Assembly (NCBI GenBank): GCA_965215275.1
Contig: OZ244044.1
Span: forward strand, 1,408,001-1,472,000
Direction of reading: 5' to 3'
Length of the DNA stretch: 64,000 nt
From: Thermodesulfobacteriota bacterium
GTDB taxonomy: Bacteria; Desulfobacterota_D; UBA1144; Nemesobacterales; JAJCZQ01
Each line of letters starts with the position of its first letter. Positions within the stretch are counted from its first letter, which is position 1. The position numbers were made by a program, and so were the translations under genes. Shown in pieces: positions 54,733-62,279 of this stretch. The notes under the pieces are model-generated. The model saw only the letters and a program-made list of their open reading frames with translations, was not told where the DNA came from and did not search any database.

Positions 54733-56085
54733 CTACTGTATAAGATCATAGTAATCCAAACCCAGATGCGTGATCAGGTCTTCCCCCATAATATACCTCA
54801 GAGTATTTTTAAGTTTCATAAGTTGAATAAAAAGGTCATGTTCAGGATATAGAACTTTGCTGACCATAGGGCTTTTAAAGTAGAACGAGAGCCATTCCTG
54901 AATACCGTACATACCTGCTCTATGTGCAAGGTCCAGAAATAGTACCAGATCCAAAACGATAGGAGCTGCAAGGATGCTGTCTCTGCACAGGAAGTTTAAC
55001 TTGATCTGCATAGGATAATTAAGCCAGCCGAAAATATCTATGTTGTCCCAGGCTTCTTTTTCGTCGCCCCTTGGGGGATAGTAATTGATCCGCACCTTAT
55101 GATAGAGGTTGGAATAAAGTTCGGGGTATAAATGGGGCTGAAATATAGTTCCAAGAACACTGAGCTTGCTTTCCTCTTTGGTTTTAAACGACCATGGATC
55201 ATCTAATACCTCACCGTCCCTGTTGCCAAGTATATTAGTTGAAAACCATCCGTTAACTCCAAGCATTCTGCTTTTAAATCCGGGTGCCAAGATAGTTTTC
55301 ATCAACGTCTGTCCCGTTTTGAAATCCTTTCCGGCTATGGGAACTTTATTTTCTTCTGCAAGACGTTCCAGTGCGGGTACGTCGGCGGACAGATTCGGAG
55401 CACCGTTAGCGTAAGGAACCCCACATTTTATTGCAGCATAGGCATAGATCATGCTCGGGGGTATATCTTTGCTGTTCTTTTTTAAGCCTTCTTCAAAACT
55501 TTTTAAGGTTTTGTGAACTTTTTTGGGCTTAATAAAGACTTCAGTGCTGCCACACCAGATCATAACCAGTCTGTCAGCTTTATTCTGTTCTTTAAACCCG
55601 TTTATATCGTCAATAAGCTGCTGGGCAAGGTCCATATTTGTCTTGCCTTTTTTGACGTGTCTGCCTGAAAGGTTCTTAACGTATTGCTGATCGAATACTG
55701 CCTTCATAGGCGATAGTTTTTTTAGCCTGCTTTTTAGGTCGTCAAGCAGTTCTTTCTGTAACACGCCAGCTTTCAGAGCAGCTTCATAACAGTTGTCCGG
55801 AAATATGTCCCACCCACCAAATATAAGGTTTTTGCAGTTTGCAAGAGGTACAAGGTCTTTAATTAACGGGGTTTTCTCCTGAGTTCTTTTCCCAAGCCTA
55901 ATAGTGCTCATCTGGGTTAACGAACCTATAGGTTTGCCGATCCCCTTGTTGATCGCTTCCACGCCGGCAGTAAAGGTGGTGCTGACCGCCCCGCTCATAC
56001 CTGGAAGTAAAACGCCGAGTTTGCCCTTGGGCGGCTTTATATTGATCTTACTACCGTTTTCTGACTTTCTGGAGAGTTTAGACAA
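54733..56085 (-). CDS. ino1: Myo-inositol-1-phosphate synthase
   Basis: FGGWDI, GKDFKTGQT, NILGNRDG, GDEKEAWD, RDSILAAP. Confidence 0.92.
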   Translation of the reverse strand: MSKLSRKSENGSKINIKPPKGKLGVLLPGMSGAVSTTFTAGVEAINKGIGKPIGSLTQMSTIRLGKRTQEKTPLIKDLVPLANCKNLIFGGWDIFPDNCYEAALKAGVLQKELLDDLKSRLKKLSPMKAVFDQQYVKNLSGRHVKKGKTNMDLAQQLIDDINGFKEQNKADRLVMIWCGSTEVFIKPKKVHKTLKSFEEGLKKNSKDIPPSMIYAYAAIKCGVPYANGAPNLSADVPALERLAEENKVPIAGKDFKTGQTLMKTILAPGFKSRMLGVNGWFSTNILGNRDGEVLDDPWSFKTKEESKLSVLGTIFQPHLYPELYSNLYHKVRINYYPPRGDEKEAWDNIDIFGWLNYPMQIKLNFLCRDSILAAPIVLDLVLFLDLAHRAGMYGIQEWLSFYFKSPMVSKVLYPEHDLFIQLMKLKNTLRYIMGEDLITHLGLDYYDLIQ

Positions 56086-56091
56086 GAAAAA

Positions 56092-56484
56092 CTACCTTTT
56101 TGAGAACTGCTGACCCCTTCTTGCTTTTCTTCTGCCGTATTTCTTACTTTCCACCATTCTCGGGTCGCGTTTGAGAAATCCCGCTGTTTTGAGTGTTTTG
56201 CGGAGTTTTTCATCTGATTTCAGTAAAGCACGTGAAATACCATGCCTTATGGCCTCTGCCTGACCCGTAAGGCCACCGCCATTTACATTTACAGCCACAG
56301 AGTATTTTCCCTTGGTACCAGTAAGTTCAAGTGGATCATTTACTTTAGTCTGCCAAATATGACGTGGAAAATATTCACTTACTTTCCTGTTGTTAATTAA
56401 GATCTCACCGCTGCCGGATTTAAGCCAGACCCTGGCAACTGACGTTTTTCTTCTACCTACTCCTCCAAATAATGTTTCTGCCAC
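56092..56484 (-). CDS. rpsI: 30S ribosomal protein S9
   Basis: [37 protein letters not shown] start at 56484 after GGAGG. Confidence 0.97.
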
Positions 56485-56489
56485 TTGAA

Positions 56490-56924
56490 CTAAACCTCCA
56501 ATTTTGTTGGTCGTTGTGCCGAATGCGGGTGTGAACTTCCCGAGTAAACTTTCAGCCTGCCTATCAGCCTTTTCTGCCATTTGTTCTTCGGCAGCATTCC
56601 CCATACGGCTTTCTTAACGACTTCCCCTGGATCTTTTTCCTTTAACTTTGCTGCAGTAATTGATTTTAATCCACCTATGTAAGGCGTATGCCAGTAGTAA
56701 GTTTTCTGTGTCCACTTCTTACCGGTCAGATTGACTTTGTCTGCGTTAACCACCACAACGAAATCGCCGTTGTCACAGTGAGGGGTAAATACTGGTTTTC
56801 CTTTGCCTCTAAGCAGATTTGCAACCTGTGTCGCAAGGCGGCCGACCGTCTTTCCTTCAGCATCTATAACAAACCATTTTTGTTCAATTTCGCTGTCTTT
56901 TGCAACGTAAGACTTCATACCCAT
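56490..56924 (-). CDS. rplM: 50S ribosomal protein L13
   Basis: [33 protein letters not shown]. Confidence 0.97.
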
Positions 56925-57041
56925 AACTCCTTATAAAATAAAAAGTTAAATTTACTGAAACAGGAAATTAAAGTCAATACAGCAAAAAGTATTGGTATTT
57001 GTAAGACCTTGCCGAAGTAGGTCGTATTTGCCGAGGTCTTT

Positions 57042-57827
57042 TTAAAGATATACCAGCCATACGAATAATTTTGATAAAATAAAATCACAGATAATGATCA
57101 GCAGAAGTGATACGACCACTGTTTTAGTGGTTGCGTTCCCTACTCCTCTCGTTCCTCCATCAGCTTTCATCCCTAAAAAACAGCCCGTTATGGAAACTAT
57201 GAGACCGAAAAAGAACGTTTTTGAAATTCCCGTGATAAAATCGCTTATGCCGATCCACTCCATTGTGGAAGTTAAAAAAAGCCTTGGCTCTATACCAAGA
57301 TCGATTTGCGACATTATCACGGCTCCCGTTATACCTGACAGATTTGCTATTATTGCAAGCAGTGGGAACGATATAACGGCGGCAAGTATTCTCGGAGCTA
57401 TGAGCTTTTTAAAAGGATCTGCTCCAAGTGATTTAATTGCATCGATTTGCTCTGTAACGTTCATCGCTCCGATCTCGGCGGTAATGCCAGAACCGACCCT
57501 TCCTCCTACCAGCAGGGAAGTAACGACCGGTCCCAGTTCTCTTACAAAGGAGAGCGTAACAACTGGTCCAACGAGACTTTTTGCCCCAAACCACAAAAAG
57601 CCCCATGACAGCTGGACGACCATGACCATCCCGATCGCCATGGCAGAAACGATGACGATCAAAATTGATTTTACGCCTATTTCAGAGATCTGCTCCAGTA
57701 CGTCCTTAGAGCTGTAATCAGGTTTTATAGTTGCACCTATACACCTTATGGAAAAAATGGAAACTACTCCCATGGTGTGCAAAAAGGTCAGACAGTTAGA
57801 GCCAATTCTGTAAAATAAACTGGTCAT
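57042..57827 (-). CDS. mlaE: MlaE-family ABC permease
   Basis: RELGPV, GRVGSGITAEIGAM..TEQIDA, GVGNATT. Confidence 0.9.
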   Translation of the reverse strand: MTSLFYRIGSNCLTFLHTMGVVSIFSIRCIGATIKPDYSSKDVLEQISEIGVKSILIVIVSAMAIGMVMVVQLSWGFLWFGAKSLVGPVVTLSFVRELGPVVTSLLVGGRVGSGITAEIGAMNVTEQIDAIKSLGADPFKKLIAPRILAAVISFPLLAIIANLSGITGAVIMSQIDLGIEPRLFLTSTMEWIGISDFITGISKTFFFGLIVSITGCFLGMKADGGTRGVGNATTKTVVVSLLLIIICDFILSKLFVWLVYL

Positions 57828-58375
57828 TATTTTGCTATAACGCTGAAATTCCCAATAAATCCCATGAAATCTTTAAAGTACAGATCAAAGCTGTTACCTA
57901 TGTTTGAGTAAATTACGTCATAAACACAATCACCTTTCATCAGTACCACCGTTGCAATTTTTAATTCTGTCTCATCAAGCTGTGCACTGTGTATCAATAA
58001 AAGGGACTGTTCGTTATCAATATGAACGGACTTTTTGCTCAGCAGCTTTTTTTGCTTAAGACCTATGAGCAGAGATCTCGACAGAGAGTCCAGACTGCTG
58101 TTGATATTGGTCGACGAGCACGTGGAGTTAACTTTTATAGAAGCGTCATTGTCCTTTGATACGAACAAAAGATCACCTTGGTCTGTGCTCACTTTATTCC
58201 AGCTGTCATTTAGCCTGCCTATCTTATAGCTCGTTGATTTCTTATTATACACGTGGTTCAGCAGCTTACCTTTTTCTTTACCGGAGGACCTGTATATCTG
58301 GGTAAATTTTACAACCGAGCAGGAACTGAGTGTGATAAGGAAAAATATCAAGGCGATAGAGATTTTATTGCTCAT
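57827..58375 (-). CDS. Hypothetical lipoprotein
   Basis: Lipobox LSSC; KGDCVYD motif. Confidence 0.65.
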   Translation of the reverse strand: MSNKISIALIFFLITLSSCSVVKFTQIYRSSGKEKGKLLNHVYNKKSTSYKIGRLNDSWNKVSTDQGDLLFVSKDNDASIKVNSTCSSTNINSSLDSLSRSLLIGLKQKKLLSKKSVHIDNEQSLLLIHSAQLDETELKIATVVLMKGDCVYDVIYSNIGNSFDLYFKDFMGFIGNFSVIAK

Positions 58376-58477
58376 TGTGGGGTTTTTAGAGTGAGATGGG
58401 AATAAAGCTAAATATTACTTGAATATTCTGTAAAAACCAACACACTAATAAACGGCGTAAAATTACGGTGCATCACA

Positions 58478-58729
58478 TTGAATAAAATTCAGGTCTATAC
58501 TTCAAGTTCGTGTCCGTTTTGTGCAAGGACAAAATTGCTGCTGGACAACAAAGGCGTTGAATATCAGGAGATCCCCCTGGACGACAATCCTGAAAAAAAG
58601 CTTGAGGTCATGAAAGAACTGAACTGGAAAACCGTTCCCATAATCATTATAAACGACAAACTTATCGGAGGTTATCAGCAACTGGCGTCGCTTGAGAGCA
58701 CCGGTGAACTGGATAAACTCCTAAGCTGA
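58478..58729 (+). CDS. grxC: Dithiol glutaredoxin
   Basis: CPFC, TVP, IGG. Confidence 0.85.
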   Translation: MNKIQVYTSSSCPFCARTKLLLDNKGVEYQEIPLDDNPEKKLEVMKELNWKTVPIIIINDKLIGGYQQLASLESTGELDKLLS

Positions 58730-58760
58730 TCATATAAACGCTTTATTTATCTTACTTCCG

Positions 58761-60155
58761 ATGCTAATAAAAACCAGATTTGCTCCAAGTCCTACTGGTT
58801 CACTTCATCTTGGTGGAGCAAGAACTGCAATATTTAACTGGTTGTTCGCACGTCACCACGGTGGAGAATTTGCCCTCAGGATCGAAGATACCGATCGGGC
58901 AAGGTCAACGCATAAGTCCGTTAATGAGATCCTGGATCTTTTAAAATGGCTGGGGATAGACTGGGATGGAGACATCGTAAAACAGTCCGAAAGGCTTGAT
59001 ATATATAAAGGATACGCTTATGCACTTCTGGAGTCCGGCAAAGCTTATAAGTGTTACCTGACCCAGGAAGAACTTGAGGCAAAGAGAGAAGAAGCACGTG
59101 AAAAAGGTGAATTTTTTCGTTACAAACGGGAATGGTCAAATGAAAACGCATCCCCGGATAAACCATATTCATTGAGACTGCTCACACCTGATACAGGTAA
59201 GATCGTGGTCAGTGACGTTATAAGGGGCAAAGTGAGCTTTAAAGCGGAAGAGATAGATGATTTCATAATTTTGCGAGTGGACGGGTATCCGACCTACAAC
59301 TTTGCGGTCGTAGTTGATGATGCTCTTATGAAAGCCTCTCATGTAATTCGTGGAGATGATCATTTGATAAATACTCCAAAACAGCTGCTTATATACAAAG
59401 CCCTTGATTTTGACGTTCCGTGTTTTGCGCACGTGTCGATGATACATGGTGCCGACGGGGTAAAACTGAGTAAAAGACATGGAGCTGCTTCGGTCGAGGC
59501 TTACAGGGACCTCGGTTACCTGCCCGAGTCAATAATCAACTACCTTGCACGGCTTGGATGGTCATATGGTGATGAGGAAATATTTTCTAGGGAGGACTTG
59601 GTAGAAAAATTTTCACTGGACGGTTTGGGAAAATCTCCCGCGGTGTTTGATCCTGAAAAACTCAACTGGCTTAATGCTTATTATATAAGGGAGAAAACAA
59701 CCGAAGAGCTCGCTGATCTGATCCTGCCCCTTATGAAAAAAAAAGGTTACGACGTCAAAGCTGATAATAAACTGATGATGATAATAGAACAGCTGAGAGA
59801 AAGGTCCAGGACCTTGAACGATTTTGTTACGCAGTCCTTCTATTTTTACATTGATGATCTTGAGTATGAAAGCAAGGCAAAGGATAAATTTTTAACTAAA
59901 GATAACGCTACGTTGTTTAAGTCCATTATTGAAAAATTGAGGTCCCTTAAAGGATTTGATCATGACTCGATTCACAAGGCACTTACTGAAATGGTAACTG
60001 AAACGGGTCTTAAATTCGGCAAGATCGCCCAGCCGATGCGCGTGGCACTGACCGGTGGCACGGTAAGTCCGGGAATTATTGAAGTCGTTGAAATACTTGG
60101 AAAAGATAAGGTGATTGAAAGATTAGAGCGTGCTGCCGGTAGTATTGATGAATGA
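58761..60155 (+). CDS. gltX: Glutamate--tRNA ligase
   Basis: RFAPSPTGSLHLGG, RIEDTD, KLSKR. Confidence 0.96.
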   Translation: MLIKTRFAPSPTGSLHLGGARTAIFNWLFARHHGGEFALRIEDTDRARSTHKSVNEILDLLKWLGIDWDGDIVKQSERLDIYKGYAYALLESGKAYKCYLTQEELEAKREEAREKGEFFRYKREWSNENASPDKPYSLRLLTPDTGKIVVSDVIRGKVSFKAEEIDDFIILRVDGYPTYNFAVVVDDALMKASHVIRGDDHLINTPKQLLIYKALDFDVPCFAHVSMIHGADGVKLSKRHGAASVEAYRDLGYLPESIINYLARLGWSYGDEEIFSREDLVEKFSLDGLGKSPAVFDPEKLNWLNAYYIREKTTEELADLILPLMKKKGYDVKADNKLMMIIEQLRERSRTLNDFVTQSFYFYIDDLEYESKAKDKFLTKDNATLFKSIIEKLRSLKGFDHDSIHKALTEMVTETGLKFGKIAQPMRVALTGGTVSPGIIEVVEILGKDKVIERLERAAGSIDE

Positions 60156-60249: not shown

Positions 60250-60504
60250 ATGGGTATGGAGATAGAAAGAATTAAATCTTTAATTGAGTCCGGTATTTCT
60301 ACGTTCCATGTGGAGGTAGTCGGTGATGGTACACATTTTAAAGCGGTCGTGGTATCGCCTGATTTTGAAAACAAAATGGTGATAGACAGGCATAAGCTTG
60401 TTTATGAGGCACTTGGCGGTGCCATGGACGAAGATATACACGCGATCTCACTAAGAACGTATACTCCGGATCAATGGCAAAACATGAGCAAGAAAGGAGA
60501 TTAA
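60250..60504 (+). CDS. BolA family protein
   Basis: GDGTHF, RHKLVY, IHAISLRT. Confidence 0.9.
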   Translation: MGMEIERIKSLIESGISTFHVEVVGDGTHFKAVVVSPDFENKMVIDRHKLVYEALGGAMDEDIHAISLRTYTPDQWQNMSKKGD

Positions 60505-60505
60505 A

Positions 60506-60823
60506 ATGTCAGACGTTATACAGGATAAGATCAGGGATCAGATCACAAGCAATAAGGTAATCCTATATATGAAAGGGTCAAGAGATACGCCGATGTGCGG
60601 TTTTTCAAGCAAAGTCGTGAAGATACTGGACTCCTATGGGGTGGATTACAAGACCGTTGACGTTCTTTTGGATCAGGATATCAGAAAGGGTATTAAAGAG
60701 TTTACGAATTGGCCCACCATACCTCAGCTGTACGTGAACGGTCAGTTTATTGGCGGATGCGACATCTGTGAAGAGATGCACTTCAACGGTGAACTGGAAA
60801 AGGTCGTTAAAACTGATCAGTAA
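60506..60823 (+). CDS. grxD: Monothiol glutaredoxin (Grx4)
   Basis: MKG...PMCGFS, WPTIPQLY, GGCD. Confidence 0.95.
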   Translation: MSDVIQDKIRDQITSNKVILYMKGSRDTPMCGFSSKVVKILDSYGVDYKTVDVLLDQDIRKGIKEFTNWPTIPQLYVNGQFIGGCDICEEMHFNGELEKVVKTDQ

Positions 60824-60934
60824 GCGTCAGAATTAAAATACACCGGGTACTTTCCTCCTCAGTACTTTAATGCTGACAACAGCATACGGAGAGATCTGTC
60901 TTATTAAATGATCCTGCAGTTTATACAAGGATTA

Positions 60935-61063
60935 TCACTTAACACATTTACAAGAGCAGTCAGAATCAGGACACTCACATTTGTCATTTTTGCAGTTGCA
61001 TGTTTCACAGTGACAATTTTCACACCCACATGATGGTTCTGATTCTATGAATATTCTTTTCAT
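60935..61063 (-). CDS. Cys-rich metallothionein-like peptide (42 aa, 11 Cys)
   Basis: Manual translation MKRIFIESEPSCGCENCHCETCNCKNDKCECPDSDCSCKCVK; AGGAGG 10 nt upstream. Confidence 0.7.
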   Translation of the reverse strand: MKRIFIESEPSCGCENCHCETCNCKNDKCECPDSDCSCKCVK

Positions 61064-61157
61064 TGTTCATTTACCTCCTGAAGTAACGATATCAATAAAA
61101 GTTGACTTTAGCAAGGAAAATATGAACAAGTGTAAAACGGACGGAATTTAGCTGTCG

Positions 61158-62279
61158 TTATGGATTATTCAGGAAGCTTTCCAGGTGGTTCTTCATGCTT
61201 GAGTCGGCTAATTTTTTCAGTGCGGCTTTTTCTATCTGCCTGATCCTTTCCCTTGTAAGATTAAACTGCTTACCGATCTCGTCCAGCGTGTACGTGTTTC
61301 TCTCTTCAATACCAAATCGCAGCCTTATTATCTGCTGCTCTCGTTGGTTCAGCAGTTCCAGTGCTTCTTTCAGTTTTTTGGCAAGGGACGCCCTTGCCAA
61401 AACGGAATCAGGTATAACGGCTTCCTTATCTGACACGGAGTCCAGCAAAGTTGTCTTCTCTCCATCGAGCACGGGCGTGTCAAGACTTATAGCGTCATTT
61501 GTGGAATGGAGTATTCTTTTTACCACTTCCACGGAAATACCGGATTCATCTGCGATCTCCTGAGGAGTGGGCTTTCTTTCAGTGGTTTTTGCTATCTTGG
61601 CACTTGTTTTATAAACGCGGTTGGCTTGCTCAAGCAGATACACCGGCACTTTAATGGTTCTTGTCTGTCCTTGAAGTGCCCTTAGGATTGCCTGATGTAT
61701 CCACCATGAGGCGTAGGTGGAAAACTTATAACCTTTAGTATGGTCAAATCTCTCAACTGCTCTCATCAAGCCTAGATTTCCTTCCTGAATAAGGTCTGGC
61801 AGCGGAAGTCCTCTGCTCATGTACCTTCTTGATATCGTTATTACAAGTCTCAGATTAGCTTTAACAAACCTTTGCTTCAAATTTTTAGCCAATTCGTAAA
61901 AGACAAAGGACAGTGCCAAAAGGCTGGTAATTCTTTTATTTAAGACCTTCGTTCTTGCAGTATTTTTTCTGCTCTTGGCTTTTAAAGCCGTTAGCTTGGT
62001 AGAAGCTGTTTTAAGTTCCTGGGCCCTTCGTTCACATTTTTTTATTTTTGCGGAGATGTGGACCTCCTGCTTTGCCGTGAAAAGAGGTTCAACGGACATA
62101 TCTTTAAAGTAAACGTATAGAAGCCTCAGCTGTTCATCGGGATTCCATTCTTCTTTATCTACAAGTTTTGACTTGTCAATACTGCTTTCATCCAGGTTCA
62201 TATCGATTTCACTATCGTTAGTGAAAGATTCGAAATCATTTATTGTTGTAGTATTTTCTTTCATATTACTTGCCTTCAC
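61158..62279 (-). CDS. RNA polymerase sigma70-family factor (RpoD/RpoS-like; start may be ATG 62264)
   Basis: ANLRLV, DLIQEGNLGL, YKFSTYASWWI, TLDEIG..LTRERIRQIE. Confidence 0.92.
   Translation of the reverse strand: MKASNMKENTTTINDFESFTNDSEIDMNLDESSIDKSKLVDKEEWNPDEQLRLLYVYFKDMSVEPLFTAKQEVHISAKIKKCERRAQELKTASTKLTALKAKSRKNTARTKVLNKRITSLLALSFVFYELAKNLKQRFVKANLRLVITISRRYMSRGLPLPDLIQEGNLGLMRAVERFDHTKGYKFSTYASWWIHQAILRALQGQTRTIKVPVYLLEQANRVYKTSAKIAKTTERKPTPQEIADESGISVEVVKRILHSTNDAISLDTPVLDGEKTTLLDSVSDKEAVIPDSVLARASLAKKLKEALELLNQREQQIIRLRFGIEERNTYTLDEIGKQFNLTRERIRQIEKAALKKLADSSMKNHLESFLNNP

Follow-up and report, generated by a model that had tools for sequence, protein, structure and literature searches.

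The window, by which we mean the whole stretch of 64,000 nucleotides analysed, contains an unannotated gene for a 42-residue peptide with 11 cysteines, and this is a real coding gene whose cysteines are under purifying selection in two relatives. Most peptides of the same family are encoded beside a gene for the sigma factor SigZ; this lineage has lost sigZ and kept the peptide gene. We think it likely, judging from the sequence, that the product is an almost histidine-free, eukaryote-style bacterial metallothionein which is now probably made constitutively. The features of the locus are listed below in window positions. G000 is the present genome, G001 is from the same genus, G002 is from the same family, and G003 has both the peptide gene and sigZ.

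60824-60934, no strand: intergenic gap to the convergent grxD, the position of sigZ in G003 by comparison of gene order
60935-61063, reverse strand: peptide gene, CxC-repeat metallothionein-like, 42 residues, 11 cysteines (from the ORF, the cysteine count and orthologues in G001 and G002)
61074-61079, reverse strand: Shine-Dalgarno sequence AGGAGG, 10 nt 5' of the ATG at 61063
61086-61091, reverse strand: predicted sigma70-type -10 element TATCGT, with TG one base upstream (at the same place TATTAT in G001 and TATGTT in G002)
61109-61114, reverse strand: predicted sigma70-type -35 element TTGCTA, with a 17 nt spacer (at the same place TTGTCA in G001 and TTGTTA in G002)
61110-61137, reverse strand: possible decayed remnant of a SigZ-type promoter, weak (equalled by 147 of 2000 shuffles)
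61158-62279, reverse strand: RpoD-like sigma factor gene, below the RpoD cut-offs, upstream of the peptide gene and not a conserved partner

Coding evidence for the peptide gene

The peptide begins MKRIF and ends CKCVK. It is 26% cysteine, with 1,2,1,2,1,4,1,4,1,1 residues between successive cysteines (CGC, CHC, CNC, CEC and CSCKC), and has one histidine and one phenylalanine; the latter precedes the cysteine domain, which itself holds no aromatic residue. The original prediction had described the same ORF and cysteine motifs together with an AGGAGG Shine-Dalgarno sequence, and ORF and composition analysis bear this out, the Shine-Dalgarno sequence being at 61079-61074; its GGAGG is retained in G001 and G002. 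An ATG at 61070 had been named as the start that might be used instead. It lies only 3 nt from the Shine-Dalgarno sequence, opens 16 codons and is absent from G002, whereas the ATG at 61063 is conserved in all three genomes.

Among 8,478 ATG ORFs of 25-90 residues in this 1.99-Mb genome, the peptide gene is the only one with at least 8 cysteines and at least 20% cysteine, and no such ORF occurs in any of six second-order Markov genomes. Hence the cysteine-rich ORF is not a product of chance. The region 60400-61400 has an identical copy in contigs from four runs of one study, from which this assembly may derive.

G001 and G002 have orthologues in the corresponding position, again convergent with grxD. 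In the three pairwise comparisons the shared cysteines are retained at 11/11, 11/11 and 12/12 positions, while 7, 5 and 4 of their codons have changed synonymously; non-cysteine residues are retained at only 14/29, 11/29 and 9/28 positions. Variation is greatest at third codon positions. The cysteine spacing, whose conservation in relatives had been proposed as a check, is likewise retained.

A simple hydropathy scan, which is not a signal-peptide predictor, gave a maximum 9-residue hydropathy of 0.46 and a net charge of -2, and by this measure the peptide is predicted to be cytoplasmic and without an export signal. None of the three peptides from G000, G001 and G002 contains a hydrophobic stretch. 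Pfam and NCBIfam gave no match for the 42-residue peptide and none above cut-off for its relatives. The metal-free structure model, which is uninformative (pLDDT 65, pTM 0.29), found no match with Foldseek, and the best match of PDB sequences to the peptide profile had an E-value of 9.2.

The peptide family and its SigZ partner

The peptide belongs to a family of unannotated CxC-repeat peptides in Dadabacteria, Bacteroidota and Balneolota. The 39 that we collected have 30-52 residues and a median cysteine content of 30%, with histidine in 3/39 and an aromatic residue inside the cysteine domain in 2/39; 36 of them adjoin sigZ. A profile built from the three orphan peptides, those of G000, G001 and G002, which lack a sigZ neighbour, retrieves the G003 peptide at E 1.2e-4, and the G003 gene is syntenic, lying behind sod and an rpoD-like gene. 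By this profile match and this synteny the 42-residue peptide is homologous to the peptides of the sigZ cassettes. An uncharacterised bacterial family had been predicted, and what we find, conserved, coding and metallothionein-like peptides outside Pfam and NCBIfam, agrees with that.

Most surveys have probably missed the family. An exact look-up in a collection of 15 billion proteins found none of 10 peptides, a result that alternative starts or a small number of short proteins in the collection could also explain, and a profile search of 1.84 billion representatives gave one match, a 62-residue protein whose residues 1-32 are the G090 peptide. A homologue search from the three-sequence alignment returned one candidate, and none was scored. 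With a cysteine-codon pattern, 44 of 101 genomes matched against a similar background in a reversed control, and among 30 of the loci inspected only two genes, both already known, encode peptides of this kind. Weak first-round matches at the G004, G012, G014, G032, G040, G044, G055, G086 and G099 loci proved to be unrelated proteins or frames open by chance, and that in G088 was false; G049 and G087 were rejected as further orphans, being contig-end cassettes with a SigZ-type motif. G085 has a degenerate 6-cysteine copy before sigZ (L047:275-388) and a second profile match on another contig (G085:C382). The portions of the literature available to us hold no description of a peptide-SigZ cassette, although published metagenomic metallothionein lists, including DeepMetagenome (PMC11705764), may already contain members.

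Matches to sigZ were found in 30 of the 101 genomes of the order, 21 of them above the TIGR02959 cut-off. Of 31 places, 30 were examined, and at 26 of these 30 loci a peptide of 30-44 residues with 6-13 cysteines is encoded directly upstream on the same strand, 49-301 nt from the sigZ match. The partners of the first further family members all exceed the TIGR02959 SigZ cut-off (4/4). A set of 80 sigZ-like loci drawn from GTDB includes 10 of Bacteroidota or Balneolota with the same peptide-sigZ arrangement and 7 that repeat Dadabacteria cases.

Other cysteine-rich ORFs were seen near sigZ in the same set. Five loci (L074, L083, L102, L127 and L137), which form a separate flavobacterial clade, encode peptides of 26-37 residues with 8-10 cysteines just downstream of sigZ and have the promoter-like motif described below directly before sigZ. 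Eight Marinifilaceae loci (L062, L064, L065, L068-L071 and L073) have a longer ORF of 83-85 residues, with 12 cysteines in three clusters, about 430-550 nt upstream of a different SigZ clade and behind the same promoter-like motif. A 68-residue ORF with 11 cysteines lies about 2 kb downstream of sigZ at the Flavobacterium loci L125, L126, L128, L130, L131, L136, L138 and L140, and at L125 an ArsR-family gene stands between the two.

In a midpoint-rooted tree of 100 sigma factors, a sample that leans towards the query and from which 10 duplicate or near-identical rows were left out, all 35 sigma factors with an upstream peptide fall on one side of a branch (support 100/97; 200/200 bootstrap trees), and the four sigZ loci of the order that lack the peptide fall on the other. 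A control in Hymenobacteraceae, with 30 loci taken from 63 genomes with a match, placed the peptide beside 4/4 sigZ genes encoding a C-terminal CxxC (two of them already known) as against 0/26 other SigZ-like paralogues. The SigZ partners have a cysteine tail (CC...CxxC) and a linker cysteine.

The upstream regions of the linked Dadabacteria peptide genes all contain TGCRTC-N15-17-CGTCT (26/26), 30-76 nt upstream and with a spacer of 16 in 23 of them; with a pattern relaxed after inspection, 8 of the 10 Bacteroidota and Balneolota cases also show a variant. The shape of TGCRTC-N16-CGTCT fits the -35/-10 pair of an ECF sigma factor, and we infer that SigZ reads this motif.

The peptide might mainly sequester arsenite or antimonite through three-thiol sites, with its SigZ clade sensing metalloids. 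Consistent with this, 16 of 43 loci from the other sigZ clades have an ArsP, ArsA/ArsD or ArsR-family gene or an SBF-family carrier, presumably Acr3-like, within two genes, and the 150 neighbours scanned at those 43 loci include no copper gene. In genus g16 a two-domain AhpD-like gene is convergent on sigZ (L015:2448-3062, reverse strand; also L076, L097, L106 and L117), and the L015 copy, at 101.7, falls below the cut-off of 120 set for an arsenosugar-associated peroxidase-like family. A tblastn search of G000 with ArsP, Acr3-like, ArsD and ArsR queries also gave no match. However, the peptide-linked sigma factors form a branch separate from those linked to ars genes, and the translated neighbours of 20 peptide-type loci show no common gene by eye. 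We consider a mainly metalloid-binding role unlikely and a metallothionein for soft metal ions the better account of the family.

Locus, loss of sigZ and predicted promoter

The neighbours of the peptide gene are a grxC-like gene, bolA, grxD (Grx4), an Fe/Mn sod and the RpoD-like sigma factor gene, with grxD convergent on the opposite strand. Two elements of this setting had been taken as meaningful context, and comparison with relatives upheld neither. The redox genes are not a constant surrounding, as grxD and bolA do not adjoin the peptide genes of G003 and G054, which lie elsewhere. The position downstream of a sigma factor is not constant either: an ABC permease replaces the RpoD-like gene in G002, and the conserved partner is SigZ, which is absent here. 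A role as a thiol or redox buffer, a cysteine store or an Fe-S carrier working with the glutaredoxins and BolA, rather than as a metal sink, would suit the adjacency to bolA-grxD that the three orphan genomes share and the glutathione synthetase found in G000 and G002, but the convergence of grxD, its separate location in the peptide-bearing G003 and G054, and the fact that 36 of the 39 peptides adjoin sigZ instead make such a role very improbable.

The gene order in G003 is sod, rpoD-like, peptide, sigZ, and that in G000 is the same minus sigZ. Searches for sigZ were negative in G000 (a single contig, 99.87% complete), G001 and G002; none of the three has a TIGR02937 match in a frame shorter than 250 residues or a same-strand gene after the peptide gene. 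The block at 54733-60155 of the window, which runs to gltX from a gene that we take to be inositol-phosphate-synthase-like, is inverted in G003 (L173) with respect to sod, the peptide gene and the rpoD-like gene; a rearrangement breakpoint therefore falls at the site of the sigZ loss.

These genomes also bear on the alternative that SigZ is the sole target of the peptide, which would act on it as a soluble anti-sigma factor or metal donor. The strict pairing with one SigZ clade would fit such a function, as would the lack of a known anti-sigma factor for SigZ in the portion of the PMC7826278 supplement available, yet the peptide and every shared cysteine have been kept in three genomes from two genera without sigZ or any TIGR02937 frame under 250 residues, and we give the proposal little credence. 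Less credible still is a leader peptide that senses cysteine and acts on sigZ by way of a downstream hairpin, or a RiPP precursor: a conserved hairpin does separate the peptide stop from the sigZ start in family f2 (L028:2030-2100 and 11 other loci; z -5.7; compensatory change in 4 of 8 consensus pairs), but no same-strand gene follows the peptide gene in the orphan genomes, the spacing of the cysteines and not their number alone is conserved, and no modifying enzyme recurs as a neighbour. In f2 the hairpin may make the peptide message more stable or limit read-through into sigZ. Because the peptide has been kept without SigZ and without a downstream gene, we regard it as an effector, not an anti-sigma factor or leader peptide, and return to the metallothionein reading.

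No SigZ-type motif precedes the peptide gene in G000, G001 or G002 (PWM scores of -2.7, -17.8 and -7.7 against 23-37 in intact sites), and G000 has no convincing site elsewhere, the best scoring 21.5, below all training sites. The possible remnant at 61110-61137 has a counterpart in G001 that 11 of 2000 shuffles equal, and G002 gives no signal. The predicted sigma70-type promoter, TTGnnA-17-TATnnT, is placed at -51, -50 and -49 in G000, G001 and G002 and is found in 0/26 sigZ-linked regions, in 1.9% of the 258 upstream regions taken from this genome and in 0.4% of shuffled sequences. A looser form, TTGnnA-16/18-TAnnnT, occurs in 7.8% of the 258 regions and in 1/26 sigZ-linked regions. The three orphan sequences are kin and were in view when the motif was defined, so this promoter is a prediction only; a stock scan did not list the site. 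The spacer of the predicted promoter in G001 (L002) contains a perfect 7-bp inverted repeat, with a 5-bp repeat in G000 at 61096-61107 and none in G002, possibly by chance.

Neither side of the peptide gene yielded a terminator: upstream, towards the RpoD-like gene, z is -0.34, so that read-through from that gene is possible, and downstream z is -1.6 and -1.4. In G003 the peptide-sigZ cassette is set off from the gene upstream by a strong hairpin (z -8.2). We propose that the peptide is expressed constitutively in this lineage from the predicted promoter.

Metal handling and comparison with known systems

The 42-residue peptide has several of the properties by which metallothioneins are operationally defined: it is small and cysteine-rich, has CxC and CxxC motifs and few aromatic residues, and comes from a coding gene with selection on its cysteines. 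From these features we infer that it binds metal. It would bind soft metal ions in a cytoplasmic thiolate cluster, and by the standard of animal and fungal metallothioneins its 11 cysteines could accommodate three or four divalent ions or between six and eight Cu(I). In the proposed ancestral circuit a cysteine-tailed SigZ/ECF238 sigma factor would sense excess metal and read the TGCRTC-N16-CGTCT promoter, giving peptide and more sigma factor; the peptide would then remove the metal and so end the signal, and the f2 hairpin after the peptide gene could bias output towards the peptide. In this lineage the sensor would have gone and the peptide stayed, likely at a steady level from a housekeeping promoter.

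P1B-ATPase (TIGR01525), CDF (PF01545), ArsR (PF01022) and CsoR (PF02583) gave no match in G000, G001 (80% complete) or G002, and CsoR gave none in 5/5 genomes. Heavy-metal RND matches in the three orphan genomes were below cut-off only. All three have COX1, the heme-copper oxidase subunit, and one Fur, and G003 has P1B-ATPase, CDF and ArsR genes. The P1B-ATPase is also absent from 6/6 f6 genomes and 36/37 f8 genomes, in which the peptide profile found no match except in G054; this profile recovered only 3/6 known positives, so that its blanks are weak. As these genomes lack the P1B-ATPase and, G054 apart, a peptide match, loss of efflux does not require the peptide.

Copper thioneins are short, cysteine-only and CxC-rich. 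Within the metallothionein reading we place Cu(I) slightly ahead of Zn or Cd, on nearly even terms, because the peptide has this same character and because the genomes contain a heme-copper oxidase subunit and no match to a P1B-ATPase.

Few bacterial metallothioneins have been characterised, namely cyanobacterial SmtA/BmtA, MymT and those of Pseudomonas, in the available text of PMC13578184 and PMC7387436. The peptide resembles SmtA/BmtA in being small, cysteine-rich, bacterial and, as predicted, cytoplasmic. It had been expected to depart from the SmtA/BmtA pattern, and it does: PF02069 has no match in G000-G002 or in 16 peptides of the family, and whereas SmtA/BmtA are described as having about 60 residues, about 16% cysteine (PMC13578184) and Cys9His clusters with a histidine ligand, these peptides have 30-52 residues, about 30% cysteine and histidine in only 3/39. 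Cyanobacterial SmtA has a divergently encoded SmtB/ArsR repressor, in contrast to the lack of a PF01022 match in G000-G002. MymT of Mycobacterium tuberculosis is likewise a small, copper-protective bacterial metallothionein outside the BmtA family; compared by description only, it differs in being controlled by the CsoR-family repressor RicR (PMC10141476), and we found no CsoR match here. The Pseudomonas metallothioneins are also without a metal-responsive regulator, and one was dispensable for metal resistance, according to the portion of PMC7387436 available.

The closest likeness in composition is to eukaryotic metallothioneins with cysteine as the only ligand, in the CxC/CxxC arrays, the cysteine content of about 30% and the near absence of histidine and aromatic residues. 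Fungal and ciliate copper thioneins and the domains of animal metallothioneins are cysteine-only, with CxC/CxxC arrays. No eukaryotic metallothionein family in Pfam reached its gathering cut-off with the 16 peptides (best 10.9 bits against 22); PF12749 gave sub-threshold E-values of 0.48-5.9 in 3/16, the best (0.48) in a relative, and the Atlas row for a metallothionein family reached only 0.78. The likeness may be convergent, and we do not claim a transfer.

For the sigma factor, SigZ (formerly ECF24) is grouped with CorE and CorE2 (formerly ECF44) in ECF238 (PMC7826278, in part), although a review questions this lumping (PMC8999054, in the text available). The cysteine tail of ECF238 is held to sense metal and mediates activation by Cu or by Cd/Zn in CorE and CorE2 (PMC7826278, PMC4937300), and by this analogy SigZ may sense metal. 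CorE and CorE2 control oxidase, ATPase and efflux genes (PMC4937300), and in the relatives the SigZ gene is paired with that of a metallothionein-like peptide; a metallothionein target is mentioned neither in the portion of the PMC7826278 supplement available (0 occurrences) nor in the CorE and CorE2 text available. The linker CxC, essential in CorE and CorE2 (PMC4937300), is not conserved between the sigma2 and sigma4 domains of 16 peptide-linked sigma factors, which have one invariant linker cysteine. According to the same portion of the supplement SigZ is poorly understood and predicted promoters are not conserved in ECF238 as a group, and this, with the missing linker CxC, counts against a simple transfer of CorE biology.

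A wider reading, which we offer tentatively as a possibility somewhat short of even, is that these peptides are a third class of bacterial metallothionein, almost histidine-free and eukaryote-like, missed by gene callers in at least three phyla and the dedicated target of one SigZ clade, and that in this streamlined Dadabacteria lineage a housekeeping promoter has taken over the peptide gene, whose product would be the chief metal buffer of a cytoplasm in which P1B-ATPase, CDF and ArsR/CsoR sensors are all lacking. If this is true, SigZ would gain its first regulon, promoter and signal. A peptide that survives the loss of its sigma factor is a natural experiment separating effector from regulator, and the family offers a testable set of peptides, a candidate promoter and, in the cultured strains of Pontibacter and Flavobacterium anseongense, a proposed two-gene circuit for sensing and sequestering metal.
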